This document shows, one piece after another, positions 2,413 to 19,836 of a DNA stretch of 32,000 nt. Made by a program: the position numbers and the translations under genes. Each line of letters begins with the position of its first letter. Position 1 is the stretch's first letter. The stretch covers positions 877,297 to 909,296 of the forward strand of contig JBNJFY010000001.1 of NCBI GenBank assembly GCA_051747265.1, written 5' to 3'. The notes beneath the pieces were generated by a model. The model had not been told where the DNA came from. It did not search any database and worked only from the letters and a program-made list of their open reading frames with translations. The stretch is from Bacteroidota bacterium. Lineage in GTDB: Bacteria > Bacteroidota > Rhodothermia > Balneolales > Balneolaceae.

Positions 2413-3636
2413 TCAAGCTTGGGATTGATAAGATTCTCCGCCTATAAATAGATCACTGCAGGCATTGGGTCTAAAATGATACATCCAGAAATTGGGGTCC
2501 GGGGTATCGATAACCGCCAAATCCGCTCGCTTGCCTACCTCAATGGAGCCCAAAGTATCTTCTCGTTGGATGGCCTTGGCGGCATTGATGGTTACGCCCT
2601 TGAGTACTTCCGCCGGAGTGAGCCCCCCGGTGTTACAGGTCAACATCATAGCTAACGGCAGATCATAACTAGGCGCGGATCCAGGATTAAAATCAGTAGC
2701 GATGGCCACATCCACGCCCGCCTGCACCAGTTTTCGCGTATTCAAAAAGGGTTGCTGCGTATATAACGAAGCCAATGGCAAGTTGACCCCAACCACACCG
2801 GCTTCGGCCATGGCGGCAATACCTTCCTCCGAAATTTGTTCGAGGTGATCCGCCGAAGCGGCGCCCACTTCCGCGGCCAGCTCCGCTCCACCACAAGAGG
2901 TTAGTTGATCGGCGTGTACCTTGGGGGTTAACCCCAGCTCCTTGCCCCGCTTATAAATGCGCCGGGCTTCATCGACAGAGAACGCACTATCCTCCACAAA
3001 AATATCACAAAACTCCGCCAACCCTTCTTCGGCCACGGCGGGCAACATTTCATTGATCACCAGATCGATATACGCTTCGCGGCGATCATCAAATTCGGGA
3101 GGTATGGTATGCGCTCCCAAAAAGGTAGGCACAATGGTGATGGGCAACGCTTCATTCAGTCGTCGATATACACCTAAGGTCTTTAGCTCATCCTCCACAG
3201 AGAGTCCGTATCCACTTTTACACTCTATCGTGGTGACCCCCAGTTTTATCATTTCATGGGCGAGACTTTGCGCCTTATCGAACAGCTCCTGCTCGCTGGC
3301 CGCCCGAGTATGTTTTACGGTGGATCTGATGCCGCCGCCGGCTTTAGCAATTTCCAGATACGACTTTCCCTGTACCCGCATGGCAAACTCATCCGGACGC
3401 CATCCTCCGAAAGCCAGGTGCGTGTGGCAATCCACCAATCCGGGAATTACCATCTGTTGACGCGCATCGTACACCGGTTCCCGATGATAAGCTTCAGGCA
3501 AATCCGCATCTTTGCCAATCCAACTGATTTTCTCATTCTCCCAGGCAATCGCGGCATCTGTCAACGCATGTATATCTGATTGTAAGCCCTCGGGTTTACA
3601 AGTAGCTAGATAACCAATGTTACGAAGTACGGGCAT
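2413..3636 (-). CDS. hutI: Imidazolonepropionase
   Basis: 407-aa ORF with amidohydrolase-type motifs (PGLVDCHTHLAFGG, KSGYGL, KVHADQL, ATDFNPGS) characteristic of HutI. Confidence 0.9.
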   Translation of the reverse strand: MPVLRNIGYLATCKPEGLQSDIHALTDAAIAWENEKISWIGKDADLPEAYHREPVYDARQQMVIPGLVDCHTHLAFGGWRPDEFAMRVQGKSYLEIAKAGGGIRSTVKHTRAASEQELFDKAQSLAHEMIKLGVTTIECKSGYGLSVEDELKTLGVYRRLNEALPITIVPTFLGAHTIPPEFDDRREAYIDLVINEMLPAVAEEGLAEFCDIFVEDSAFSVDEARRIYKRGKELGLTPKVHADQLTSCGGAELAAEVGAASADHLEQISEEGIAAMAEAGVVGVNLPLASLYTQQPFLNTRKLVQAGVDVAIATDFNPGSAPSYDLPLAMMLTCNTGGLTPAEVLKGVTINAAKAIQREDTLGSIEVGKRADLAVIDTPDPNFWMYHFRPNACSDLFIGGESYQSQA

Positions 3637-3967
3637 AAACGCGAGATATGTTTAATTTCTAAATAATACTGTTATCACTAACCACTGTAGAATCTATCTT
3701 TTCTACACTAATCATCCAACCGACGTCCTGATTGGTTCGCCTCAAATTGTCTACTTTACCCCACATACTTCATAATGCGATTTAACTGCATTCTTCTTGA
3801 TATGTACTTTATCTTTATCATATTCCATTTAATGGTAGGTAAACGGATTTGAATTACCATCTGTGATTACCACTTTAATCTATCGGGAAATACTTCCCGG
3901 AATTGCCCGTTGCTCTTGACCGATTGACGGCAAGCCCAAAAACGACCAAGGATATACACTTACTGAT

Positions 3968-9402: not shown

Positions 9403-10401
9403 TTATTCCTCGTTATCCGTTTGATCTAAAATATCGTAAATCTTAATTGCTTTCTGCTTGCGTACCCGCCCCGGATATCCGGTCATTTTTTGTTCATTAT
9501 TTACCAAAATACTGAGTGGTTCTTCCACTCGCTGTTCCAAAGGAATCACATCCCCTTCCTGCATCTGAATCAAATCCCGGATCGATATTTTGGTGTTGCC
9601 CAATTGGGCCTGCAGGGGAACGGAAATTTCTTTCACTTTGGACTGATAGCGTTGCCGCTGCTCCGGTTCCAGATCGTCCTTGCGCATCTGATTAGACATC
9701 TTGAGCAGCGAGTTGCTCAATGCCTCTTCCAGCAAGGCGTAGGGGTAACACATATTAAAGGTTGCCTTGCTGTCGTATACCTGCACGGTATAAAAAACCA
9801 CAATGGCGGGTTCTACCGCGGAGATAATCTGAATATTTTCGGGATTACTTTCGTAGGAATGCTGATAAACCGTTAAATCAGTGAACGGCTCCCAGGCCAG
9901 TTGAATCTCCGAGTACACCCGGTTCATAACCCGAGACATAATCTTCTCTTCGATCTGGGTCATTTCCCGGCGAAAGGTCATTTCTTTGCCGGATCCCCCG
10001 CTTTGGCGCTCCACCGCGAAAATGCAGTATCGTGGATCGATCTCTATAACCGCCTCGCCGCCCCATTCTTCAATGGTGAACAAAAATAGCGCGCTAGGGG
10101 ACGCGATAGATTGCACAAATTCCGAATACACCACCTGGTCGATGGCATTCAGTTGTACATCCACGATGGTGCGCAGCGTATTGGTGAACGCGACACTGAG
10201 ATTTCGCGCCAGGGTTTCGTGCAGATTGCGCAGTGAGCGCATCTGCTCCTGCGATACCAATTTCGGATGTCGGAAATCATAGGCATTAACCTCCTTGGAA
10301 GGCTGTAATACCTGCTCCTGTTCTTCAATTTCAGGCACTTCACCTGAAACCTCCGACATCAGGGCATCAATTTCGCGTTGTGATAATAATTTATGAGCCA
10401 T
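9403..10401 (-). CDS. fliM: Flagellar motor switch protein FliM
   Basis: 332 aa. The N-terminal [10 protein letters not shown] is the CheY-P-binding motif of FliM. There is a C-terminal SpoA-like domain, and the gene lies between fliL and fliN. Confidence 0.9.
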
Positions 10402-10440
10402 AAGTAAGGTCCATCATTGTATATTCCAGCCCTAGCTGGG

Positions 10441-10956
10441 TCACTGCATCACATATTCAGTGAAAAATAAATTCTTAACGGCTTGCCGCTCGATGGTCTG
10501 GTTTATCATAATCCCAATTTCTTGTTTCAGCTCCTTGCGAGTTTCCAGCTGCGCCAGTTCTTCTACCGTCCGCCTGCTGAGCAAGGTGTTTATGGCATCC
10601 CGTATCATGATCTCCCGGCGCGTAATTACTTCGATATCTTCTTTGTTTCGAACCTGGATCCCCATAGAGACCACGAGGAACCTTGTTCCGTTAGATCCGG
10701 CTGGATTTACCGTTAAATCTTCCAGTTCGTAGAATCCGCCCATTTCAGGTGGCTGCCCATACATATATTCGTACATGGATGGATAATAGAGTGCCACCAC
10801 GGTATAAGCCGCTACAGCCTCGGCTATTAATATCGCGGCAATCAGGAATATATTCCCATAGTTCTTGCTAAACGAACTGGGTATGGTAACCACGGGGATG
10901 TCCCCGTCGTCCATGTTTTGCTGTTGATTTGCCTGATCTAAATTTTGCTTGGCCAT
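10441..10956 (-). CDS. fliL: Flagellar basal-body-associated protein FliL
   Basis: 171 aa with a single N-terminal TM. FYELEDLTVNPAGSNGTRFLVVSMGIQV matches the FliL core motif. Position between motB and fliM. Confidence 0.8.
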   Translation of the reverse strand: MAKQNLDQANQQQNMDDGDIPVVTIPSSFSKNYGNIFLIAAILIAEAVAAYTVVALYYPSMYEYMYGQPPEMGGFYELEDLTVNPAGSNGTRFLVVSMGIQVRNKEDIEVITRREIMIRDAINTLLSRRTVEELAQLETRKELKQEIGIMINQTIERQAVKNLFFTEYVMQ

Positions 10957-10985
10957 AATTTTTGAATTTCTTCACTCATATTGTA

Positions 10986-11001
10986 TCAAAAAACGCGCCA
11001 A
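10986..11001 (-). promoter_or_regulatory. sigma-54-like -24/-12 element TTGGCGCGTTTTTTGA upstream of fliL (overlaps the terminator stem)
   Basis: This is the same TTGGC-N7-TTGA pattern and spacing as the element upstream of flgB. It is built from the 3' half of the motB terminator hairpin plus its T-run, so it may be coincidental. Confidence 0.15.
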
Positions 11002-11024
11002 ACTCTATATTTCGAGCTGCGCGT
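10988..11024 (-). terminator. Intrinsic-terminator-like hairpin after motB (attenuator between motB and fliL)
   Basis: On minus-strand RNA, ACGCGCAGCUC-GAAAUAUA-GAGUU(UG)GCGCGU forms 11 bp with a 2-nt bulge and one G-U pair. It is followed by the remaining 5 U of a 6-U run whose first U closes the stem. It starts 35 nt after the motB stop. Confidence 0.5.
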
Positions 11025-11058
11025 CCGATTCCAGGGCGATAATTACGGGCCGTAATGA

Positions 11059-11808
11059 TTAATTTCTTCCGGCCGGTAGTAACAACTCCTCTCGCATATT
11101 ACTTCTGGGACGATTACTGGAAGATTCATTTTGCTCGCTCTGTCGATATCGTATTAACACTTCCACCCTGCGATTGGCCCGCCTGCCTTCATCGGTTTCG
11201 TTGGTAGCCAGCGGGCGAAATTCGCCGACGCTGCTGGCTTTAAATTTTTCGGGGGGAATGTCGGTGTTGGCCACTAAAAATTGCAATACCGAAATGGCCC
11301 TTTCTGCTCCCAAATCCCAGTTGGAGCGATACCGGCCGGAGCGGATGGGCTGATTATCGGTATGTCCCTGCACCTCGATTTCGGCCACATCCTGATCAAA
11401 TAGATAGGTAATCTCTTGCAATACCGATTTCGACTGTTCTCGCAAGGTTGCCGCGCCGCTCCCAAAGGTTAGGGATTCCTTCAGGATAATACGGTTCCCT
11501 TGAGGCATCAGATCCAGCTGTACCTGATCTTGCAGATTTTGCTCATCGATATAGTCGTTGAGATTTTCCCAGCGCTGCTCACGTTGTCGAACGCGTTCGG
11601 CGAGGGATCCGGCGGGAATGACCGAACTTTCATTTAACACGCCTCGCCCACCTTGAAAGGTGTTGAGTATGGCGGTTAGCTTGCTATCCTCAATGCCATC
11701 GGTCATGGAGTAAAACACGACGAAAAATACCAACATCAAGGTCATGAAGTCACTGAATGTGACCAGCCAGGTGTTGGAGTTATTATTGTTATTGGAATTA
11801 TTTGCCAT
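11059..11808 (-). CDS. motB: Flagellar stator protein MotB (OmpA-like C-terminal domain)
   Basis: 249 aa. The N-terminal TM with the conserved Asp is WLVTFSDFMTLMLVFFVVF. The C-terminal OmpA-like motifs are VQGHTDNQP and NRRVEV. It lies directly after motA. Confidence 0.85.
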   Translation of the reverse strand: MANNSNNNNNSNTWLVTFSDFMTLMLVFFVVFYSMTDGIEDSKLTAILNTFQGGRGVLNESSVIPAGSLAERVRQREQRWENLNDYIDEQNLQDQVQLDLMPQGNRIILKESLTFGSGAATLREQSKSVLQEITYLFDQDVAEIEVQGHTDNQPIRSGRYRSNWDLGAERAISVLQFLVANTDIPPEKFKASSVGEFRPLATNETDEGRRANRRVEVLIRYRQSEQNESSSNRPRSNMREELLLPAGRN

Positions 11809-11856
11809 AAGGAGCGAAAAGCCCTGCTTTGCTCAATTTCCCTAAGTTGTGTCAGC

Positions 11857-12723
11857 CTACATGGTGGAAACGACGTTTTCCCATTTTTCTTTTTGTTCGG
11901 CCACCCAGTGATTGTACATCTGCTGTTCTTGTTTTTTGGAGAAACCGCGATCTCCATGGATTCGTATGTATTTTGCTCGTTCTTCGGGGGAAACGTAGGT
12001 CAGCATTTTTTTCTCCATGATCCGCGGGTTTTCGCCGTTGGCCAGGGATAACAACCCGGTGCGCATCATTTCTTTTTCGTTTTTCTCCTGTTCGGAGAGT
12101 TTATCCAGTTTTCCGCCTAAGGGAATAAATACCAGGTTGGATAATATGGTACCATAAAATGTGGTGATCAGCGCGATGGCCAGCCCGGGTCCGATGCCTT
12201 CGGGGTTGTCTAGGTTACGCAGCATCAGAATCAATCCAATCAGGGTTCCGATCATCCCGAAGGCGGGCGAGTAGGTCCCCATGGAGTTTAGCACATTGAT
12301 GGAGGTGGTGTGTCGACGTTCCAGCGCTTTGATTTCATCATCTAAAATCTGGACCAGGTTTTCTTCGGGAATGCCGTCGATAACCAACTCTAACCCGTTT
12401 TTCAGATATCGGTCTTCTACATAGCGCACATCATCATCCAGTGTTAATAACCCCTGCCGACGTGCCCGGCGGGAAAACATGGTCATCAGTTCGATATCTT
12501 CGGTGAGGTCGATGCTTGGGCGACCAACCACCGATTGAATGGCTTGGTAGCTGGTGGTAATATCTTCCACGGAGTAATTTACCAAGGTGGCCGCAAAAAC
12601 TCCCCCAACTACAATGAGTAAGGATTCGATGCTCAGGAAAGACGACAGCCCCCCCTGCACCAATATAGCAATGGCAATCAGCGCAAACCCTGACCCCAGC
12701 CCAATAAGTGTTGAACGTTCCAT
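11857..12723 (-). CDS. motA: Flagellar stator protein MotA
   Basis: 288 aa. The MotA/TolQ/ExbB channel motif is GTYSPAFGMIGTLIGLILML...ALITTFYGTILSNLVFIPL. Gene order is motA-motB. Confidence 0.9.
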   Translation of the reverse strand: MERSTLIGLGSGFALIAIAILVQGGLSSFLSIESLLIVVGGVFAATLVNYSVEDITTSYQAIQSVVGRPSIDLTEDIELMTMFSRRARRQGLLTLDDDVRYVEDRYLKNGLELVIDGIPEENLVQILDDEIKALERRHTTSINVLNSMGTYSPAFGMIGTLIGLILMLRNLDNPEGIGPGLAIALITTFYGTILSNLVFIPLGGKLDKLSEQEKNEKEMMRTGLLSLANGENPRIMEKKMLTYVSPEERAKYIRIHGDRGFSKKQEQQMYNHWVAEQKEKWENVVSTM

Positions 12724-12782
12724 AACGTAGTTATCCTATCCTATAATTACTCACAGACCATTATCATCATAAATTACCTCCA

Positions 12783-12818
12783 TTTAACAATTGTCGGTAA
12801 TTAATGATGAATAATTAA
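12783..12818. repeat. Left arm of nested inverted repeats flanking the four-helix-bundle gene
   Basis: TTTAACAATT (12783-12792) and ATGAATAATTAA (12807-12818) are the exact reverse complements of 13281-13290 and 13243-13254 respectively. Confidence 0.6.
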
Positions 12819-12844
12819 AAATTAACAAACCATCACTGATATAT

Positions 12845-13210
12845 TTAGCGATTATTCCCTTTAAGGGTATTTAAAATAGAGGTCAGTATTCTAAGAACTT
12901 CATCACAATCTTGCTTCAGTTCTTTATATACCTGGTCATCGATATAGGATGATTTGTTTAATAGTTTAATCCAAAAGCTGGTTTCCCTTGCTTCCTTATA
13001 TGAGATCGAAAGTTTATGTATAAAATCCGCTTTTGATTGCGCCCCTATGGCCTCTTCAACATTCGCGCCAACCGAGGTGCCGGATCGTAACAACTGCTTA
13101 CTCATCACAAATTCTTTTTTCTGATGAACTAATACCTTATAAAGGTCTACAATTTTCAAAGCGAAATCGAAGCTTTTTTGCTGTATGATATTTTCTTTAT
13201 CTCGTCTCAC
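12845..13210 (-). CDS. Four-helix-bundle protein (23S rRNA intervening-sequence protein / Avd-like family)
   Basis: 121 aa. QLLRSGTSVGANVEEAIGAQSKADFIHKLSISYKEARETSFWIKLL is the signature core of the TIGR02436-type four-helix-bundle family, in the subfamily common in Bacteroidota. A hand-counted 60-nt block (12901-12960) is 33% GC, versus about 50% for the neighbours. Confidence 0.9.
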   Translation of the reverse strand: MRRDKENIIQQKSFDFALKIVDLYKVLVHQKKEFVMSKQLLRSGTSVGANVEEAIGAQSKADFIHKLSISYKEARETSFWIKLLNKSSYIDDQVYKELKQDCDEVLRILTSILNTLKGNNR

Positions 13211-13242
13211 AGCATCATATTAATACCATTAGCAGCCAATTA

Positions 13243-13290
13243 TTAATTATTCATTGATAATTATTCATTCCCAAACTGCTAATTGTTAAA
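13243..13290. repeat. Right arm of nested inverted repeats flanking the four-helix-bundle gene
   Basis: TTAATTATTCAT (13243-13254), with a tandem near-copy TAATTATTCATT (13258-13269), and AATTGTTAAA (13281-13290). These are reverse complements of the left-arm elements in a nested (outer-outer, inner-inner) arrangement. Confidence 0.6.
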
Positions 13291-13318
13291 AAGCAGGACG
13301 ACGCTTCGAAACGCCGCC
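13288..13318 (-). terminator. Intrinsic-terminator-like hairpin after flgE
   Basis: On minus-strand RNA, GGCGGCG-UUUCGAA-CGUCGUCC forms 7 bp including one G-U and one bulged U, followed by UGCUUUUU. It starts 19 nt after the flgE stop. Its U-tract runs into the outer inverted repeat of the cassette. Confidence 0.5.
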
Positions 13319-13337
13319 CCACTCATCAGTTTAACGA

Positions 13338-15014
13338 TTAACGCTTCAGCTGCACGGCCTCAGCCATGAGTTGATCGGAGGTGGTGATCACCCGTGCGTT
13401 GGACTGGTAGGCCCGCTGCGTGACGATCATCTCGGTGAATTCCTGCGCCAGATCTACGTTGGATCCTTCCAGGAAGCCTGAGTTCACAGAGGTGTCCACC
13501 ATGCTACTGGCGGTATCCGTACGTACTTCCCCGGCTTGGGTTTGAGCGGCATACAGACCGTTACCCTCGTTAGAGAGTCCTTCCGGATTGGCCACATCGG
13601 CTACGGCCAGCTGAGCAAGATTCTTACTCTTACCGTTGCTGTAGTTACCCACGATTAAGCCATCCTTGTCGATGAAGAAGTCCACCAATTCACCCTTGGC
13701 AAAACCATCCTGAGAGTCCACATTAGCCGTGGTGGTTCCCTGGAATTGACTCAGCGACTTGGAGCCTGAGTCGAAATTGAGCGCGAAGCTCATCGGGTTG
13801 GAGCCATTATTGGGGTTGAACGTGATGGTTGAGGAATCATCGGTGATGTTCCCGCTGGAGTCGAAATTAATTTCTCCAGTTGGATTGGCTGTAATGGTTT
13901 CCCCATCCAAGAACTTGGCTTGATATTGCCAGGTATCGGATGAGGTTCGATCACCACTTTGATCCAATCCCTGAGTAAACTCAACAATTAAAGTGTGAGC
14001 TTCTCCTAAATCATCATACACTGTAGATGAAATTGTGCGACTGTTGTATGCACCTTCTTGACTTACATCAAAAGTAGGTGGATCAAAATTACCACCTGCA
14101 TCGTCCAACGATATATCTAAACTACTTGCTCCAGGACGGTCAGATCTTAGGTTAATCAACCCATCATCCAATGTTGCCGTAGCATTTGCTGTTGATCCAT
14201 TACTTTGTGATTGACTTGTAATGAAATCTACAAACTCACCAACTGTTGTACCATCGGTTCCATATTGGAATCCATAGGTATTTGTAACAGCATCAGCAGG
14301 ATCTGTACTACTTGGATCATCTTCGGTTAATGTTACTTGAATCGTTTGACCACCACCAGATGATAAATCACCTGTTGTTTGATCAAGCGCATTTAAGTCA
14401 GTTGACCTAGTTGCCAGATCTCCACTGTTGGTAGTTAAGGCCTGAACAGCGGAAACGATTTGTTCTTCGCTGGTCTTGGAGTTCAGATTCCCGGCCAGAT
14501 TTACGTTCTGGGTTTTCTGAGGGGAATACACATCCTGGAAATCGACCTGGATGTCATTCGCGGATCCACCGCTTACCACTTCACCAGCAGAATTGGCGTT
14601 GAATCCTTGCACGCTCAGCCCTTGCTGGGTAACCAGATTACCGTTCTTGTTGAAGCTGAAGTTACCGGAGCGGGTCAGCATGTTTTGGGATCCGTCATTG
14701 ACCATGAAGAATCCGTTGCCTTCCAGCGCCAGATCGGTAGTACGGTTGGTGGCATCCAGTGACCCTTGCGACATATCTTGGTCGATAGAGGCCACACGGA
14801 CACCCAGTCCTACCTGGTTATTCTGCTTGGGAGCGGATTCATAATCCGCGCCGCCGCGGCTCATATTTTTCTGCAGCATTTCAGAGAATGCTACCCGCCC
14901 GGACTTAAATCCAGACGTGTTGACGTTGGCAATGTTATTACCAATAACGTCCATTTTGGTTTGAAAGCCCTTCAAACCACTAACACCGGCTTGTAATGAA
15001 TTAATTAAAGCCAT
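13338..15014 (-). CDS. flgE: Flagellar hook protein FlgE (long form with central insertion domain)
   Basis: 558 aa. The N-terminal rod/hook motif is SLQAGVSGLKGFQTKMDVIGNNIANVNTSGFK and the C-terminal motif is EFTEMIVTQRAYQSNARVITTSDQLMAEAV. A strong SD (AAGGAGGAA) lies 6 nt upstream of the ATG. Confidence 0.9.
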   Translation of the reverse strand: MALINSLQAGVSGLKGFQTKMDVIGNNIANVNTSGFKSGRVAFSEMLQKNMSRGGADYESAPKQNNQVGLGVRVASIDQDMSQGSLDATNRTTDLALEGNGFFMVNDGSQNMLTRSGNFSFNKNGNLVTQQGLSVQGFNANSAGEVVSGGSANDIQVDFQDVYSPQKTQNVNLAGNLNSKTSEEQIVSAVQALTTNSGDLATRSTDLNALDQTTGDLSSGGGQTIQVTLTEDDPSSTDPADAVTNTYGFQYGTDGTTVGEFVDFITSQSQSNGSTANATATLDDGLINLRSDRPGASSLDISLDDAGGNFDPPTFDVSQEGAYNSRTISSTVYDDLGEAHTLIVEFTQGLDQSGDRTSSDTWQYQAKFLDGETITANPTGEINFDSSGNITDDSSTITFNPNNGSNPMSFALNFDSGSKSLSQFQGTTTANVDSQDGFAKGELVDFFIDKDGLIVGNYSNGKSKNLAQLAVADVANPEGLSNEGNGLYAAQTQAGEVRTDTASSMVDTSVNSGFLEGSNVDLAQEFTEMIVTQRAYQSNARVITTSDQLMAEAVQLKR

Positions 15015-15289
15015 AGTGATTCCTCCTTATTTGGTGCACAGCGTCAATCGGTCGGCTGTGCGCGGGCTTCCCTTGCGGGTCCAGCCCAATTAAAGGTTGT
15101 TTAATTGAAAAGTTGAATATCACGGTCCGCTACACGGTAACTTATGCGAAAGCAACCGAGGGAACCCACCCTAGTCGAGGGGCGATATTCAAGAGTTAGA
15201 TTTTAAAAGAACAAAGATCGCTTGGTGTACTTTTCGGTTTTGAACCGTCTCGCGCCGTCGATCTTATATCAGGTTTCAGAGAACATAGG
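15015..15289 (-). promoter_or_regulatory. 275-nt structured leader/intergenic region upstream of flgE
   Basis: Three consecutive hairpins on the minus strand lie just upstream of the SD. They are CAATTAAA/TTTAATTG (15087-15107), GGGCU..CCC-GCAA-GGG..AGCCC (about 15064-15087, GNRA loop), and GCACAGC/GCTGTGC (15036-15061). This is the longest non-coding gap inside the cluster. Confidence 0.35.
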
Positions 15290-15727
15290 TTAACTGTTCA
15301 CTCCATTGGAGCCCTGTGCTTGCGTAAGCACCGTGCTGTCAATCTGGGTAAACACCTTTTCTCGCATTTCCAGCTGGTCTACCGCGGTAATCACCGTACG
15401 GTTTTCCACATTGACGATAAACGCGTTATCGCCATCCAGAATCAGCGATTCCTTGCTGCCCTTCGCCTGTGCCCGATCCACCGCTTCTTCGATGCGCTGC
15501 ATATCAGCTTGATTTAGCTGTATGTTGCGATCGACCAAACGTTGCTGCGCGTGTCCGGAGAACTGTAGGCGTTCCGCTTGCGGGGTTTTATCCACCGACT
15601 TCCGCTGGAAGACTTCCTTAAAAGTCTCGCCCTGCGGCGTGCGTTTGGCCTGTTCGGTTCCCGGCTGCTGCTTCTGTTTCTGCGGCGAAACAGGATCGAC
15701 ACGACCGGTTAAATGGCGTATATCCAT
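15290..15727 (-). CDS. Flagellar operon protein (TIGR02530-like, as found between flgD and flgE in Firmicutes)
   Basis: 145 aa. The segment RLQFSGHAQQRLVDRNIQLNQADMQRIEEAVDRAQAKGSKESLILDGDNAFIVNVENRTVITAVD matches, from memory, the FS.HA.QRL..RNI.L...L..AV..A..KG.K.SL...D.AFIV.V.N.TVITA pattern of that family. Position between flgD and flgE. Confidence 0.65.
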   Translation of the reverse strand: MDIRHLTGRVDPVSPQKQKQQPGTEQAKRTPQGETFKEVFQRKSVDKTPQAERLQFSGHAQQRLVDRNIQLNQADMQRIEEAVDRAQAKGSKESLILDGDNAFIVNVENRTVITAVDQLEMREKVFTQIDSTVLTQAQGSNGVNS

Positions 15728-15784
15728 CGTGATTTTACATCATTGATTGATATCCGCATCATACGGTTTCGGCGTTTCATGCGC

Positions 15785-16477
15785 CTAACCTTCTGATGAT
15801 TGGGGTACCTCCCCAATTTCTTCTACGTCGCCCAAGCTAACTGACAATCCGTTGACCATCAACTTCACGCCCTCACCTGAGAAACGTATTCGTGAAATTT
15901 CTCCTCGTACAAACGAGGTCGACTTCACCTTAGCATCGCCATCTTTGGCATTAATCTCAACCGTGTACTCTCCTTCAGGAGCCTTATTACCACTTCCGGT
16001 ACGTCCGTCCCACTCCCAACTGTGATCACCTTTTCCAAGGTTACTCAAGTTTTCGGTGCGAACAACCGTACCGTCCTGGTCACGAATGACCACTTCGGTA
16101 TCCGAAGCATTGCCATCCAGCTTAAACTGGATATCGGCTTTGCCCGAGTCACCCAGCGCCAACTGATTGGTATGCACTTTTACCTGCTTACCGGTCAGCG
16201 TAGATGCCATCGTGTTGACCAAGCCGTTACTCATGGACTCTTGCTGTTGGGCAAGTTTTTCCAAGCCACTATTCACGTTGACCAACTGCTCCACGGAGTT
16301 AAACTGAGCCAGCTGCGAAGCAAACTCAGCGCCTTCCATCGGGTTCACCGGATCCTGATTGCGAAGCTGGGTGACCAGCAACTGCAAAAAATCCTGCTTC
16401 CCGAGATCGGACTTCCCCGGTTCAGAAGAAGCCTGACGGATGAACGATGTATTGCTATTAATAGACGCTACATCCAT
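15785..16477 (-). CDS. flgD: Flagellar hook assembly/capping protein FlgD
   Basis: 230 aa. The N-terminal motif is DFLQLLVTQLRNQDPVNPM. The C-terminal Ig-like FlgD domain includes GEYTVEINAKDGD. Confidence 0.9.
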   Translation of the reverse strand: MDVASINSNTSFIRQASSEPGKSDLGKQDFLQLLVTQLRNQDPVNPMEGAEFASQLAQFNSVEQLVNVNSGLEKLAQQQESMSNGLVNTMASTLTGKQVKVHTNQLALGDSGKADIQFKLDGNASDTEVVIRDQDGTVVRTENLSNLGKGDHSWEWDGRTGSGNKAPEGEYTVEINAKDGDAKVKSTSFVRGEISRIRFSGEGVKLMVNGLSVSLGDVEEIGEVPQSSEG

Positions 16478-16518
16478 AGGTTATTGGTTTATGTTATCGA
16501 GCAACGACATGACGCTCA

Positions 16519-19500
16519 TCATCCCGTCCACTCATTGTTATTAAATCCAAAAAGTCGCGGACGTTGTCGGCTGCGAGATCCTTGCTCGCTCTGGGCCGCT
16601 TCGGCACCCGGCCGGCCGGATCCACCCGACAGACCCTCGCCTTGTCCGTTCAGTTGTTGCTCAAAGCCGCCCTGGGCTTCCGCCCCGGCTTCCTGTTGCA
16701 ATTGTACATCCACCTGCAGATCCAGCTGCTCCTGCAAATGGGCCTTAATATGTTGAATATGTTGCTGTAGCAAGCGGTTCATTTCCGCGTTGCCGGTAGT
16801 AATATGCACATGCAGCGTACCATCCGATTTCTGCATAGACAAGTTCAGTGTTTCCCCCTTGTCCAATACAATGCGATGGCGGTGCCACTGCTCTCCCCCC
16901 TTGGAGGAAGAACGCACCGGATGACGCTGAATCACTTGTGCAATTTTGTTGGGTAACTCCTGACGAGCAAACTGCATGGCCGCCGCGTCATTGCGGAACA
17001 TGGTAGGCATGCCGTCTACTTTCTTGCCAGCCATTTTAGCCGCGTCAGTCATTTTACCGGCGGCCTCCATACCCGCATCGCCCCCGGCTCCACCGGATCC
17101 TGCCTGGTTATTGGAAACACCGGCTTCTCCGCCCGAACCGCTATTTACGGAGGACGAACCGGAAGATTTGCTAGCGTCACTAATTTCTGAACGTTGGGTA
17201 TCCATGGCCAGTCGCGGCTCCTTGGAGGATTGCTGCGATGCCTTGCCGGATCCCTGCTTCGCTTGGCTTTCATTCTGTGAAGAGTTGGAAAACGAAAACG
17301 ATTTCTGTCCGGCTGATTTCGCTGATTCATTTCCTTTGGCCGAACCGTTTACCGAATTTGATTTAGCAGATTGCTGCTGCTTGGCATTCGCATTCTCATT
17401 CTTCGCACTCACCGCATCCGAAGCGCTGCGCGAAGTGGAAACCTCCGCCTGTTTGGCACTGGAAACCGCATTATTCACTTGCTTCACCTGATCAGTCGCC
17501 TTCGAAGTTGATTTGGAAACGGCGGCTTCTCCTTGTCCAGCCTTCGCGGTCTGTTGCGCATTCAAGTTTTGCGTTTTAGCAGAACCATTCTGAGATTTAA
17601 TTCCTGCCTTGGAACTCGCCTTGGCATCCAGCGGCTGCGTTTGCTGCTTCTGCTGTTGCTGTAATCCCTTCTGGGTCAATTCCGCTTTATCGGATCCCGC
17701 TGCGGTTTGCGAAGCCCCCATGGCTTTCTGCTGTGCGCCGGATTTAGAATCAGTACCTAAATATTGGTGCCCACGAATTTTACCCTGCGACCAGGTCAAG
17801 CTCTTGCTTTGTGTGGTCGAGGACTGATTAACGGACTTACTTTGGGTGCTCTTTGTATCAGTTCCCGAAACCTTAGTCGTAGTGCCTGGCTCGGGTTTCG
17901 GAGATTCCGCGGATGCCTTCGAAGCTGTTTTAGGTTTAGACTGAGTTGAAGCCGATTTATCAGTAGCCTGCGATTGTTGAGCAGTCTGCGCCTTTGATGA
18001 CAATTTCGACTTATTCGATCCACTCGCTGCTTGCGCCTGTGTCGAAGATGTAATTTCTGCATTTGCAGTGGATTTCGGCTCCACGTTTTGGGTGCCAGAG
18101 CTAGACGGCTGCATCCCTTTGTTGGATGCAGATTCCGAGCGTGAAGATTGTGAACTATTTTGCTCGGATTTTCTTACCCCGTCCGATTGTTTAGCTTCCA
18201 CTGAGTTAGTAGAATCCTTCGTATTTGAGGGCACCTCCCCAGACTTAGCAGACACCTCGCTTTTCGTCTGCACATCGTTTGAGGATTGCACAGACGACGG
18301 CTGAGAAGTTACAGTGTCAGACTTCGACGAGGAATCAGCCGCTTGGTTTTGGGATTCACTAGCTTTGTATGACTGGGAAGACTCCTCCCTATCTTGTGCA
18401 CCATTTTGTGCATCAGATATCTGGGTACCCTGTCCTTTAACCTTCTGTGTGGACGGAGCAGGTTGAGAGTCAACTTTTTTGGGTGAACTCGCCTTTGAAG
18501 CGGTTTCTGAAGACTGAGCACTCATTGTATCTGCCTCAGCCTTGGTACCACTAATCTCGGTTTGCTGATTCGCTTGTTTCGTGAATTCTACTTTATCGGA
18601 ATCTTTCTGGGTCGTTTGCTGTGCAGACGGTTGATTCTCAGACGTTGTATTTTTAGCCGGATCCGCCGTTTTCAACCTGGAATTAGTGTTTTGCGATGAA
18701 GCATCTTGCTGAGAAACCGGTGAGCTCTGGTTATCTACCTGTCCCGAATCATCTGATGTCTCTCCCTTCTTCCCAGCATTAGCGGCAACTTGTGATGCTC
18801 CCTGCTGTTTCGTTTGAACCGAGGCTTGTTGGTTCTTAGCAGCACTTTTGGAATTGGTTTTAACCTTGGCCTGCTTATCCTGAATTTGACCAGCGTGTTC
18901 TTTTTTGGTCTCAGAAGCACCTTCAGACATTGATGTTGTTTCAGATGGTGCCTGTGAGCTCTTGCTATCTACCTGCTGAGTGGACCCCGATTCGTTAGTC
19001 TTAGCAGCGTTTGGCCGGGGCTCGTTTTCAGATTGAGTTGATTGAGTCTTTTCTGCCTGATTCGCCGAAGAAGAATTTGAATTCGATTGAGCTTTTTCGC
19101 TGGATTTAGCTTCATCATTCTGCGGGGACGGTGAAGTCGACTTGGAGTCCGACTCCGATTTCGCATCAATAGGAATTTCTTTACCCGTTTTCGGATCTAC
19201 CGTAACCTTCTGCCCCTGTCCATTTTTCGCAGCATTAGTATCAGTACTTTTCGAATCTACGGTAACTTTTTGCTCCTGGGCAGCATCTCCGGATTGCTGA
19301 CTAGGTGCATTTTGATCAGCTTTTCCATGTTTCGAAACCTTGGACGCTTGTTGCGATTCGCCCGTCTTGCTTTGCTGTTTACTCTGGGAAATCTCTTTGC
19401 CATTCTTGGCTTGTTGATCGGCTAGTTGCTTGCCCTTGAGGCGGCTTTTTTGATGCTTATTTCGTTTTCCAACCACCTCTTCGCTGAGCTCGGCATTGGA

Positions 19501-19836
19501 ACCCTTTAGGTTTAAGTGAATTCCTTCCTGCTCGGCCTGCTGTAATAAACTCTTGGAGAATTGTACGCTTACCTGTAGGCCATGCTTATCAATATAGCCT
19601 TCTTTCACGCCCAGGTGTTTAGCCATCAACGATTTCAGGCTCTGCTCATCGAGCGATTCCACCCCTTGCGCTTTCAGAAACTCGATGAACTTGGCTTGAT
19701 TGACATTCAGGCCATCGCCACCTGCCTTACCCATACCTTGGGCATTAGCCAATTGGGATGCACTGGAGGCACCGGATCCGTTGGACCCTTTGCTCTCGAA
19801 AAGTTGAGCTAGCTGTTTGAAGACATTGAAATTCAT
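16519..19836 (-). CDS. fliK: Flagellar hook-length control protein FliK (1105 aa, giant low-complexity central region)
   Basis: The C-terminal Flg_hook-like domain (about aa 945-1045) is LPNKIAQVIQRHPVRSSSKGGEQWHRHRIVLDKGETLNLSMQKSDGTLHVHITTGNAEMNRLLQQHIQHIKAHLQEQ. Position between the flbB/ylxF-like gene and flgD. About aa 123-940 are S/Q/K/A/T/N-rich and nearly free of aromatic or bulky hydrophobic residues. Confidence 0.8.
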   Translation of the reverse strand: MNFNVFKQLAQLFESKGSNGSGASSASQLANAQGMGKAGGDGLNVNQAKFIEFLKAQGVESLDEQSLKSLMAKHLGVKEGYIDKHGLQVSVQFSKSLLQQAEQEGIHLNLKGSNAELSEEVVGKRNKHQKSRLKGKQLADQQAKNGKEISQSKQQSKTGESQQASKVSKHGKADQNAPSQQSGDAAQEQKVTVDSKSTDTNAAKNGQGQKVTVDPKTGKEIPIDAKSESDSKSTSPSPQNDEAKSSEKAQSNSNSSSANQAEKTQSTQSENEPRPNAAKTNESGSTQQVDSKSSQAPSETTSMSEGASETKKEHAGQIQDKQAKVKTNSKSAAKNQQASVQTKQQGASQVAANAGKKGETSDDSGQVDNQSSPVSQQDASSQNTNSRLKTADPAKNTTSENQPSAQQTTQKDSDKVEFTKQANQQTEISGTKAEADTMSAQSSETASKASSPKKVDSQPAPSTQKVKGQGTQISDAQNGAQDREESSQSYKASESQNQAADSSSKSDTVTSQPSSVQSSNDVQTKSEVSAKSGEVPSNTKDSTNSVEAKQSDGVRKSEQNSSQSSRSESASNKGMQPSSSGTQNVEPKSTANAEITSSTQAQAASGSNKSKLSSKAQTAQQSQATDKSASTQSKPKTASKASAESPKPEPGTTTKVSGTDTKSTQSKSVNQSSTTQSKSLTWSQGKIRGHQYLGTDSKSGAQQKAMGASQTAAGSDKAELTQKGLQQQQKQQTQPLDAKASSKAGIKSQNGSAKTQNLNAQQTAKAGQGEAAVSKSTSKATDQVKQVNNAVSSAKQAEVSTSRSASDAVSAKNENANAKQQQSAKSNSVNGSAKGNESAKSAGQKSFSFSNSSQNESQAKQGSGKASQQSSKEPRLAMDTQRSEISDASKSSGSSSVNSGSGGEAGVSNNQAGSGGAGGDAGMEAAGKMTDAAKMAGKKVDGMPTMFRNDAAAMQFARQELPNKIAQVIQRHPVRSSSKGGEQWHRHRIVLDKGETLNLSMQKSDGTLHVHITTGNAEMNRLLQQHIQHIKAHLQEQLDLQVDVQLQQEAGAEAQGGFEQQLNGQGEGLSGGSGRPGAEAAQSEQGSRSRQRPRLFGFNNNEWTG

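Follow-up and report, generated by a model that had tools for sequence, protein, structure and literature searches.

A 32-kb stretch of a Balneolaceae genome (GenBank contig JBNJFY010000001.1), called the window here over its whole length, carries a complete flagellar gene cluster in which an AT-rich segment with a single 121-residue open reading frame (ORF) separates the hook protein gene flgE from motA; this segment, which we treat as a cassette, is the subject of our analysis. The ORF list and domain search place all of the relevant genes on the minus strand, in the order flgB, flgC, fliE, fliF, fliG, fliH, fliI, fliJ, orf213, orf1105, flgD, and a gene matching TIGR02530, followed by flgE, the 121-residue ORF, motA, motB, fliL, fliM, fliN, fliO, fliP, and fliR. 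The upstream host gene, flgE (13338-15014, minus strand), encodes 558 residues with Flg_bb_rod, LlgE_F_G_D1, FlgE_D2, and Flg_bbr_C domains, and the downstream host gene, motA (11857-12723, minus strand), encodes 288 residues with a MotA_ExbB domain. The 614 bp between them (12724-13337) have a GC content of 34.2%, compared with 48.4% for the whole window; by part, the figures are 26.4% for the left flank and 36.1% for the cassette ORF, against 48.1% for flgE and 49.0% for motA, and GC at third codon positions (GC3) is 0.37 in the cassette ORF and 0.49 to 0.58 in neighboring genes. Hand counts given in the original prediction, which had been made from the sequence without database searches, proved to be exact (23.3% for 12781-12840 and 33.3% for 12901-12960), and the segment is as AT rich relative to its surroundings as had been claimed, although the range of 50 to 57% quoted for the two neighbors was slightly high. 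A Pfam scan assigned 33 of the 37 window ORFs to flagellar or housekeeping functions, left 4 without a match (185, 205, 213, and 1,105 residues), and detected no reverse transcriptase, transposase, or integrase among them; no Rfam family, rRNA included, reaches its gathering threshold anywhere in the window.

The cassette ORF (12845-13210, minus strand, GTG start) belongs, as predicted, to the family of four-helix-bundle proteins first associated with 23S rRNA intervening sequences (IVSs): hidden Markov model scores exceed the cutoffs for both PF05635 (101.8 bits, cutoff 33.8, residues 5 to 110) and TIGR02436 (114.9 bits, cutoff 24, residues 9 to 117). Matches to PDB entries 2RLD (E=3.6e-37, residues 2 to 119) and 2GSC (E=1e-3), both deposited as five chains, suggest a four-helix-bundle fold and a pentameric assembly for the protein. 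The family motif GxxRxxxSxxxNxxE (PMC3936711) is represented by R42, S46, N50, and E53, with Q39 in place of the first glycine in the window's subfamily, and S46, N50, and E53 are invariant across an alignment of 20 sequences. The family has thousands of relatives in the protein database that we searched, with several copies in some genomes. PHROGs returned a weak match to a family of unknown function, and an identity as Cas11, raised by PADLOC, was rejected, the match being subthreshold (E=0.018). Immediately upstream lies a three-codon mini-ORF, ATGATGCTGTGA (13207-13218, minus strand), read from the sequence, whose TGA overlaps the GTG start of the cassette ORF (GUGA) and which may serve as a stop-start coupling device; the arrangement is kept, with one extra ATG codon, in the counterpart ATGATGATGTTGTGA at the sister locus described below.

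Insertion and maintenance of the cassette

The nearest species representatives in a genome scan with MotA are metagenome-assembled genomes (MAGs) of Balneolales, at 61 to 63% identity, and comparison of the junction across relatives, as the original prediction had advised, showed the cassette to be present in one sister genome (locus L081) and absent from 11 Balneolales loci, where the flgE-motA gap spans 67 to 507 bp with no gene between. All 11 of these cassette-free loci have a GC-rich hairpin after flgE at the same position; the cassette therefore inserted where a terminator hairpin was already in place. No member of the four-helix-bundle family is encoded in any of 160 other flagellar loci (1.31 Mb). 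Together with the low GC3, the gene-free junctions and the absence of the family from other flagellar loci favor the first of three origins that had been put forward, an inserted cassette. The locus had also been described as the slot of flbD, and in Bacillota and several other phyla, gaps of 220 to 430 bp do encode FlbD (PF06289, 83 to 103 bits), but tblastn with 10 FlbD queries detected no homologue in the window (nothing at E<=1) or in 12 Balneolales loci. The cassette ORF has no PF06289 match; it shares with FlbD/SwrD of Bacillota and spirochaetes the operon position between flgE and motA but has no sequence relationship to that protein, which is absent from the junction in all Balneolales examined. 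The AT-rich island in this flagellar operon is an old insertion, not a missing flagellar gene.

A protein search recovered the window's own protein (P0001) and a single close relative (P0002, 85 to 86% identity), with all others at 69% or less; P0002 lies on L081, at the same flgE-cassette-motA junction, whereas exact look-ups of P0001 yielded no locus. Identity between the two cassette ORFs is 85, 93, and 54% by codon position, and the ratio of nonsynonymous to synonymous divergence (dN/dS) is about 0.05; by these measures the ORF is under purifying selection and the protein has been maintained. MotA is 97.6% identical between the two genomes. The arms flanking the ORF and a 77-nucleotide (nt) block upstream of motA (12745-12821) are 89 to 96% identical to L081 (96% for the block), within the range of 88 to 98% found for other operon spacers, and a reading of flank identity as exceptional constraint was withdrawn for that reason; the outlier is the fast-evolving ORF with its linkers.

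Several features elsewhere in the cluster are recorded in their own right. Across 9403-19836, the proportion of synonymous differences from L081 ranges from 0.12 to 0.20 in flgD, the TIGR02530 gene, fliL, and fliM and from 0.35 to 0.49 in fliK, flgE, motA, and motB, reaching 0.71 in the cassette ORF; such mosaic divergence along the operon is suggestive of recombination or of very uneven constraint. The 1,105-residue ORF (16519-19836, minus strand), between fliJ/orf213 and flgD, is very rich in Ser, Gln, and Lys and occupies the position expected for fliK (hook-length control); it has no Pfam match at E<=1e-3, and its counterpart in L081 has 1,106 residues and 81% identity. The spacer between the TIGR02530 gene and flgE (15015-15289) comprises 275 nt of noncoding DNA, long and well conserved for a spacer (92% identical in L081), with no Rfam match. 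A second AT-rich stretch (3601-3900, 35% GC) separates the divergent genes for an amidohydrolase and malic enzyme and probably represents a divergent promoter region of the ordinary kind. Among the cassette-free relatives, the flgE-motA spacer of one Balneolaceae MAG (L010:5494-6001; 507 nt) lacks a convincing ORF; it has three hairpin modules that are related to one another and end in T runs, and it looks like a small repeated extragenic element. By eye, CCGATAA or CGATAA motifs, sometimes with TAAG about 15 nt upstream, can be seen in the flgE-motA spacers of four cassette-free Balneolales loci (L005, L009, L010, and L073); they resemble the sigma-28 consensus TAAA-N15-GCCGATAA, and the window has ACCGACAA at 12790-12797, which would make it a candidate sigma-28-like promoter for motA.

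Flanking repeats and predicted folding of the window copy

Both pairs of inverted repeats that had been reported around the ORF are present. The outer pair, TTTAACAATT (12783-12792) and AATTGTTAAA (13281-13290), is perfectly complementary over 10 nt, its right copy overlapping the end of the terminator U tract, and the inner pair consists of ATGAATAATTAA (12807-12818) and TTAATTATTCAT (13243-13254); the tandem second copy of the latter exists as well, but as a one-mismatch copy at 13257-13268. A perfect inverted match of at least 12 nt between the flanks arose in 1 of 2,000 composition-preserving shuffles and one of at least 10 nt in 2.1%, so that the outer pair is weak by itself, and it is probably incidental. 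The inner 12-mer, with at most one mismatch allowed, occurs three times in 32 kb, every time within the 614-bp segment, against 0.32 occurrences expected.

The two right-hand copies of the inner repeat lie within a degenerate heptamer array, the 5' arm (13238-13269, minus strand), which reads AATGAAT, AATTATC, AATGAAT, and AATTAAT on the gene strand; Tandem Repeats Finder (TRF) reports it with a period of 7, 4.6 copies, and 72% matches (unit AATTATT on the plus strand) and as the sole period-7 array in 32 kb. On the other side of the ORF, the 3' arm (12798-12828, minus strand), which holds the copy at 12807-12818, was found through its inverted repeats and is the inverted remnant of a heptamer array, its reverse complement reading AATTAAT, GATGAAT, AATTAAA, and AATTAAC. 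Self-match peaks at lag 7 in both flanks of the window (periodicity of 0.60 in the 3' arm), and the best inverted match between the arms has a score of 14 over 17 nt (z=5.1, p=0.005).

Although complementary termini thus surround the ORF, little long-range pairing between them is predicted. Folding of the 614-nt transcript of the segment (minimum free energy [MFE] and centroid structures, pair probabilities, and constrained folds) has each flank pairing locally, and the bipartite 10+12-bp stem of the original prediction appears in neither the MFE nor the centroid structure. Pair probabilities are 3e-5 for the inner and 1e-9 for the outer repeat, and forcing the pairs costs +6.9 (inner), +13.6 (outer), or +14.0 (both) kcal/mol; two long-range pairs occur in the MFE and 1.8 are expected in the ensemble. 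The longest helix available has 12 AU-rich bp and is worth -9.0 kcal/mol; between it and the outer 10 bp lies an internal loop of 26 x 14 nt. In L081, the outer pair is reduced from 10 to 6 bp by uncompensated changes, and the inner pair differs by an A->G change in the 5' arm; the 3' arm is invariant, and a G.U pair remains. Because the arms have decayed and each is held in a local hairpin, we infer that long-range pairing and RNase III excision are unlikely for the window copy.

The 5' arm sits in a predicted hairpin (13222-13290, minus strand; -13.9 kcal/mol) with the stem TTAGCAG/CTGCTAA, the base of which is invariant in L081, and part of the 3' arm sits in another (12762-12812, minus strand; -17.4 kcal/mol), where it pairs with a downstream GGAGG...ATGATGA segment; this second hairpin competes with the long-range stem and lies within the conserved 77-nt block. 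The terminator-like hairpin that had been noticed after flgE is real (13286-13324, minus strand): RNA folding gives 15 bp and -21.5 kcal/mol followed by UUUUU, with 92% identity in L081, and a simple terminator scan does not have it among its calls. This hairpin is host sequence, outside the cassette. Upstream of motA, the sequence further contains GGAGG (12777-12781) and, 7 nt past it, a 7-codon mini-ORF, ATGATGATAATGGTCTGTGAGTAA (MMIMVCE; 12770->12747; the whole feature spans 12747-12781, minus strand), which lies 23 nt upstream of motA within a 22-bp near-palindrome and is kept in L081 with ATG->TTG at codon 2. The 5' arm hairpin contains two matches to the sigma-70-like consensus, TTAACA-18-AATAAT (13289->13260) and TTGGGA-17-AATAAT (13274->13246), but promoter-like sites are not enriched in the region (4 versus 6.6 +/- 2.8 expected in a sigma-70 scan, which does not cover Bacteroidota-type promoters), and the TTGTTA-N17-ATTAAT promoter previously suggested for the other arm is not among them.

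Inverted heptamer arrays around homologous cassettes

The brackets of the window copy belong to an architecture that recurs throughout the family. We compared the 120 nt upstream of the start with the 120 nt downstream of the stop in 26 cassettes, part of a panel from several phyla that was gathered by similarity to the window protein and later enlarged by three to 29. The best inverted flank match has a median score of 17.5, compared with 7 for direct and reverse-only controls, and 20 of the 26 cassettes lie at the shuffle floor of p=0.005. Scores for 1,365 other genes from the same 189 loci have a median of 7 and go no higher than 16, and a score of at least 13 is reached by 0.7% of these genes versus 77% of cassettes (Mann-Whitney p=2e-18). 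The flanks are built from heptamers. Their self-match rises to 0.67 at a lag of 7 (other lags give about 0.38), lags 14 and 21 show harmonics, and in 43 of 48 flanks TRF reports a period divisible by 7, with a median of 4.35 copies and a range of 2.4 to 16. These copy numbers led us to reject the idea of five units per array matching a pentamer. The unit varies by cassette lineage (AATTCAA, GAGGTCG, TCGTAAT, GTGATTA, ATTTTAG, ACTCATT, and others), yet the array that follows the ORF matches the reverse complement of the one that precedes it. In three cassettes (L173:1839-1933, L185:2444-2555, and L177:2378-2465) one arm is very long and perfect, with 13 to 16 units, and much exceeds its partner in length; rapid expansion through slippage may be the cause.

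A closing stem, usually of 30 to 60 pairs, is present in the MFE structure of the whole cassette transcript in 25 of the 29 cassettes; four lack such a stem, including the window copy, with 2 pairs, and L081, with 5. The IVS-like architecture that had been proposed for this locus is accordingly borne out as a property of the family, inverted brackets recurring around paralogous genes (a test that the original prediction had itself set) with varying unit sequences, but not for the stem of the window copy itself. The arms of the window are among the weakest of the panel and are an eroded remnant of the family-wide architecture, not a private 10+12-bp stem. Mismatches within arms comprise 24 G.U and 33 A.C, with no excess of G.U, and this test is uninformative as to whether RNA or DNA is the relevant level.

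The arms travel with the ORF across phyla, since the closest protein relatives of the window (Bacteroidota and Parcubacteria) share AATTAAG/AATTAAT arrays resembling its own units. Two cassettes in different gene contexts (L178 and L184) are 76% identical over about 500 nt that take in array, ORF, and array only, from about 95 nt upstream of the start to 24 to 30 nt past the stop. The nearest homologues lie between operon genes of many kinds: between resistance-nodulation-division (RND) adaptor and pump genes (L162, L174, and L192) and after a pump gene (L190), as two copies in a type IV secretion operon (L168), between hsdS and hsdR (L176), between drmD and an MmeI-type gene (L186), between genes for a helicase and a methylase (L182 and L187), between csx2 and cas1 (L189), upstream of recF (L173), and, in antisense orientation, between cas2 and cas1 (L179 and L180). 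Of the 25 annotated cassettes, 21 are co-oriented with the downstream gene and four are antisense to their neighbors. The four-helix-bundle ORF between hsdS and hsdR (L176:2007-2357), on a plasmid of Monoglobus pectinilyticus, is absent from the PLSDB gene table. Three copies on a Nostoc flagelliforme plasmid belong to one duplicated segment and were discarded as uninformative on cassette mobility, and a scan of viral contigs gave four loci only.

Origin, possible roles, and relation to known elements

We consider it likely that the feature in the window is an old, vertically inherited cassette of the IVS type with decayed arms; nothing indicates a flagellar role for it. A cassette of about 470 bp (roughly 12798-13269) would have been inserted into a short flgE-motA spacer, just past the conserved terminator hairpin, in the common ancestor of the source genome and the one sister genome. 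In the family at large, the cassette would be cotranscribed with its host operon, as the co-orientation of 21 of 25 cassettes with the downstream gene implies, and pairing of the arms would enclose the ORF in a stem-loop open to RNase III cleavage, so that insertion between genes would be tolerated. In the window copy, the arms would have been reduced to 4.6 imperfect AT-only units with no more than 12 contiguous bp, and the element may now behave as a small resident gene between the terminator and motA, its expression probably due to transcripts that read through the flgE terminator or that start at a promoter-like, AT-rich site in the 5' arm; motA would still be served by the well-conserved stretch of about 75 nt between the 3' arm and its start codon.

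Several points weigh against this account. The panel is rich in cyanobacterial plasmids and includes entries that are not independent (the window and L081, L170/L171, L162/L192, and L179/L180). No close relative with an empty site, and no intermediate relative, emerged from the genome or metagenome scans (the latter, with MotA, returned nothing above 59% identity), and the borders of the insertion are not defined by any such site. There is no mobility enzyme in the window, and we know of none for such cassettes. The arms are conserved to the same degree as other spacers, a finding compatible with a current function no less than with decay. The selected pairing could act on DNA, as a substrate for recombination or transposition, and not on the sense RNA. 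Finally, folds of 600 nt ignore cotranscriptional folding, ribosomes, and proteins, and RNase III processing at the window site may take place in spite of them.

A role at the DNA level is a serious alternative for the cassette family, and selection on complementarity may act on RNA or on DNA. The inverted arrays could be terminal inverted repeats, or hairpin or cruciform substrates, of a mobile element moved in trans, with RNA pairing as a by-product, and we regard this as possible but less likely than not. The lack of a G.U bias, the long and near-perfect arms, the tandem arrays typical of DNA slippage, the four cassettes antisense to their neighbors, the homology of L178 and L184 that stops at the arrays, and the proposal of earlier authors that IVSs are remnants of transposition (quoted in PMC4990558) are all consistent with it. 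However, arm sequence varies widely by lineage, unlike the ends recognized by a transposase, although members of the window's subfamily share a unit type (AATTAAK); no transposase or integrase is associated; most cassettes follow the orientation of the host operon; and no clear target-site duplication was found around the window copy, where the only direct match flanking the arms, the 6-nt ACAATT, is not significant in AT-rich DNA.

It is somewhat less probable, although compatible with the inheritance of a decayed cassette, that the old arms have been exapted as regulatory DNA, that is, as a promoter or operator that acts on motA and the cassette gene and to which the four-helix-bundle protein might bind, the repeats being kept for transcriptional control and not for pairing. 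The two sigma-70-like matches in the 5' arm are suitably spaced from the ORF, the 22-bp near-palindrome falls within the 77-nt block before motA, which is 96% conserved, the CCGATAA/CGATAA motifs of several cassette-free spacers have a counterpart by eye in ACCGACAA of the window, the type of repeat unit follows the protein subfamily, and heptamer arrays of Nostoc changed promoter use in reporter assays (bioRxiv 10.1101/2022.06.06.494920). Against this, the promoter-like sites are not enriched in a scan without Bacteroidota-type promoters, binding of the protein to the arms is purely hypothetical, and common descent explains the covariation of unit and protein equally well.

An active RNase III module, in which the arms pair and are cut so that the flgB-flgE and motA-fliR messages are separated or differentially stabilized, had been the second origin proposed; we find it improbable. 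Closing stems occur across the family, the Coxiella IVS offers a precedent (PMC4990558), the A->G change in L081 retains a G.U pair with the invariant 3' arm, and the arms are 89 to 96% conserved, but the stem is absent from the predicted structures, with probabilities of at most 3e-5 and a forcing cost of +6.9 to +14 kcal/mol, the outer pair decays in L081 without compensation, and the conservation of the flanks is not exceptional. RNase III prefers about two helical turns of double-stranded RNA, and the longest helix here is 12 AU-rich bp before a large internal loop. Such a module is also unnecessary for uncoupling the two messages, because all of the cassette-free Balneolales relatives already have a hairpin after flgE. 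Recruitment as a flagellar accessory gene, for example as a functional replacement for FlbD/SwrD, the third origin proposed, finds no support and is very improbable: that two diverged genomes have kept the gene at this junction, with purifying selection on it, fits any function, no other flagellar locus of the 160 has a family member, close homologues occur in efflux, restriction-modification, CRISPR, DISARM-like, and conjugation operons, and there is nothing to replace, since flbD is missing from the junction in the Balneolales examined.

As an IVS-type cassette, the element in the window is best compared with the IVSs of 23S rRNA in Coxiella burnetii and Leptospira (PMC4990558). They encode the same protein family (S23p, which is PF05635), are similar in length (428 to 444 nt, compared with about 470 nt), have an ORF within terminal inverted repeats and tandem heptamers upstream of the ORF inside the stem, and show a sporadic distribution that suggests horizontal transfer. 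In the Coxiella IVS, the one member to have been studied by experiment, the inverted ends pair as a 28-bp stem; tandem GACAGAT heptamers, whose number differs by strain, lie in it upstream of the S23p ORF, and RNase III cuts this stem at the first repeat and releases an ORF-containing RNA (PMC4990558). In contrast, the window element lies between two flagellar genes and not in helix 9, 25, or 45 of 23S rRNA, its eroded arms are not predicted to pair, and purifying selection acts on its ORF, while that of Coxiella is reportedly in decay and probably untranslated (PMC4990558). The Avd proteins of diversity-generating retroelements (PMC10053308) belong to the same family, with a homologous four-helix-bundle fold, but no reverse transcriptase or other retroelement gene is present in the 32 kb (template and variable repeats were not searched for), and Avd genes, unlike the cassettes, are not described with inverted heptamer-array brackets. 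Members annotated as 23S_rRNA_IVP in cas loci (PMC3936711; listed in PMC10910872) likewise lie within an unrelated operon, for example, between cmr3 and cmr2, a placement that was read as a functional association with CRISPR-Cas (PMC3936711); the placements found here in efflux, restriction-modification, CRISPR, conjugation, and flagellar operons suggest instead a general habit of inserting between operon genes.

Heptamer arrays have been described separately as GGGAATC pairs in Xanthomonas and GGGGA(C/T)T in Nostoc (PMC4692102), as TAACTGA in Beggiatoaceae, cyanobacteria, and Bacteroidetes (PMC4679880), and as TTTTGAA/TTCAAAA in Nostoc (bioRxiv 10.1101/2022.06.06.494920). They share with the cassette arms a 7-nt unit, an intergenic location, often next to start codons, about four units per array, and, in Xanthomonas, convergent inverted pairs, and the Nostoc unit TTTTGAA/TTCAAAA is the bracket of cassettes L178 and L184. 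The published arrays were treated as free-standing, with no gene named, whereas those analyzed here are inverted pairs around a four-helix-bundle ORF; we found no paper linking heptamer arrays to PF05635/TIGR02436 genes in a limited literature collection, which is no proof of novelty. It is conceivable, though on balance doubtful, that four-helix-bundle/IVS cassettes are pan-bacterial, self-contained "operon interlopers" that insert between genes or into rRNA helices, with inverted heptamer arrays that close the ORF and allow it to be looped out or cut out by RNase III; on this view, the arms of such cassettes, or their ORF-less derivatives and footprints, would account for the intergenic arrays known from cyanobacteria, Xanthomonas, Beggiatoaceae, and Bacteroidota, and the arrays would be the target of the pentameric protein, for mobility or for processing.

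For the window alone, the result is modest; its wider value lies in the observation that PF05635/TIGR02436 genes are bracketed by inverted arrays far more often than other genes are. Should this hold genome-wide, it would unify the rRNA IVSs with the family genes found in CRISPR, restriction-modification, efflux, and conjugation operons, so that such operon-borne genes could be read as insertions and not as components of the systems in which they lie. It would also offer an origin for the heptamer arrays of bacteria, which have been without explanation since they were first described, and would provide a simple experimental system (arms plus ORF, in rnc+ and rnc- backgrounds) for a new kind of tolerated intra-operon element.

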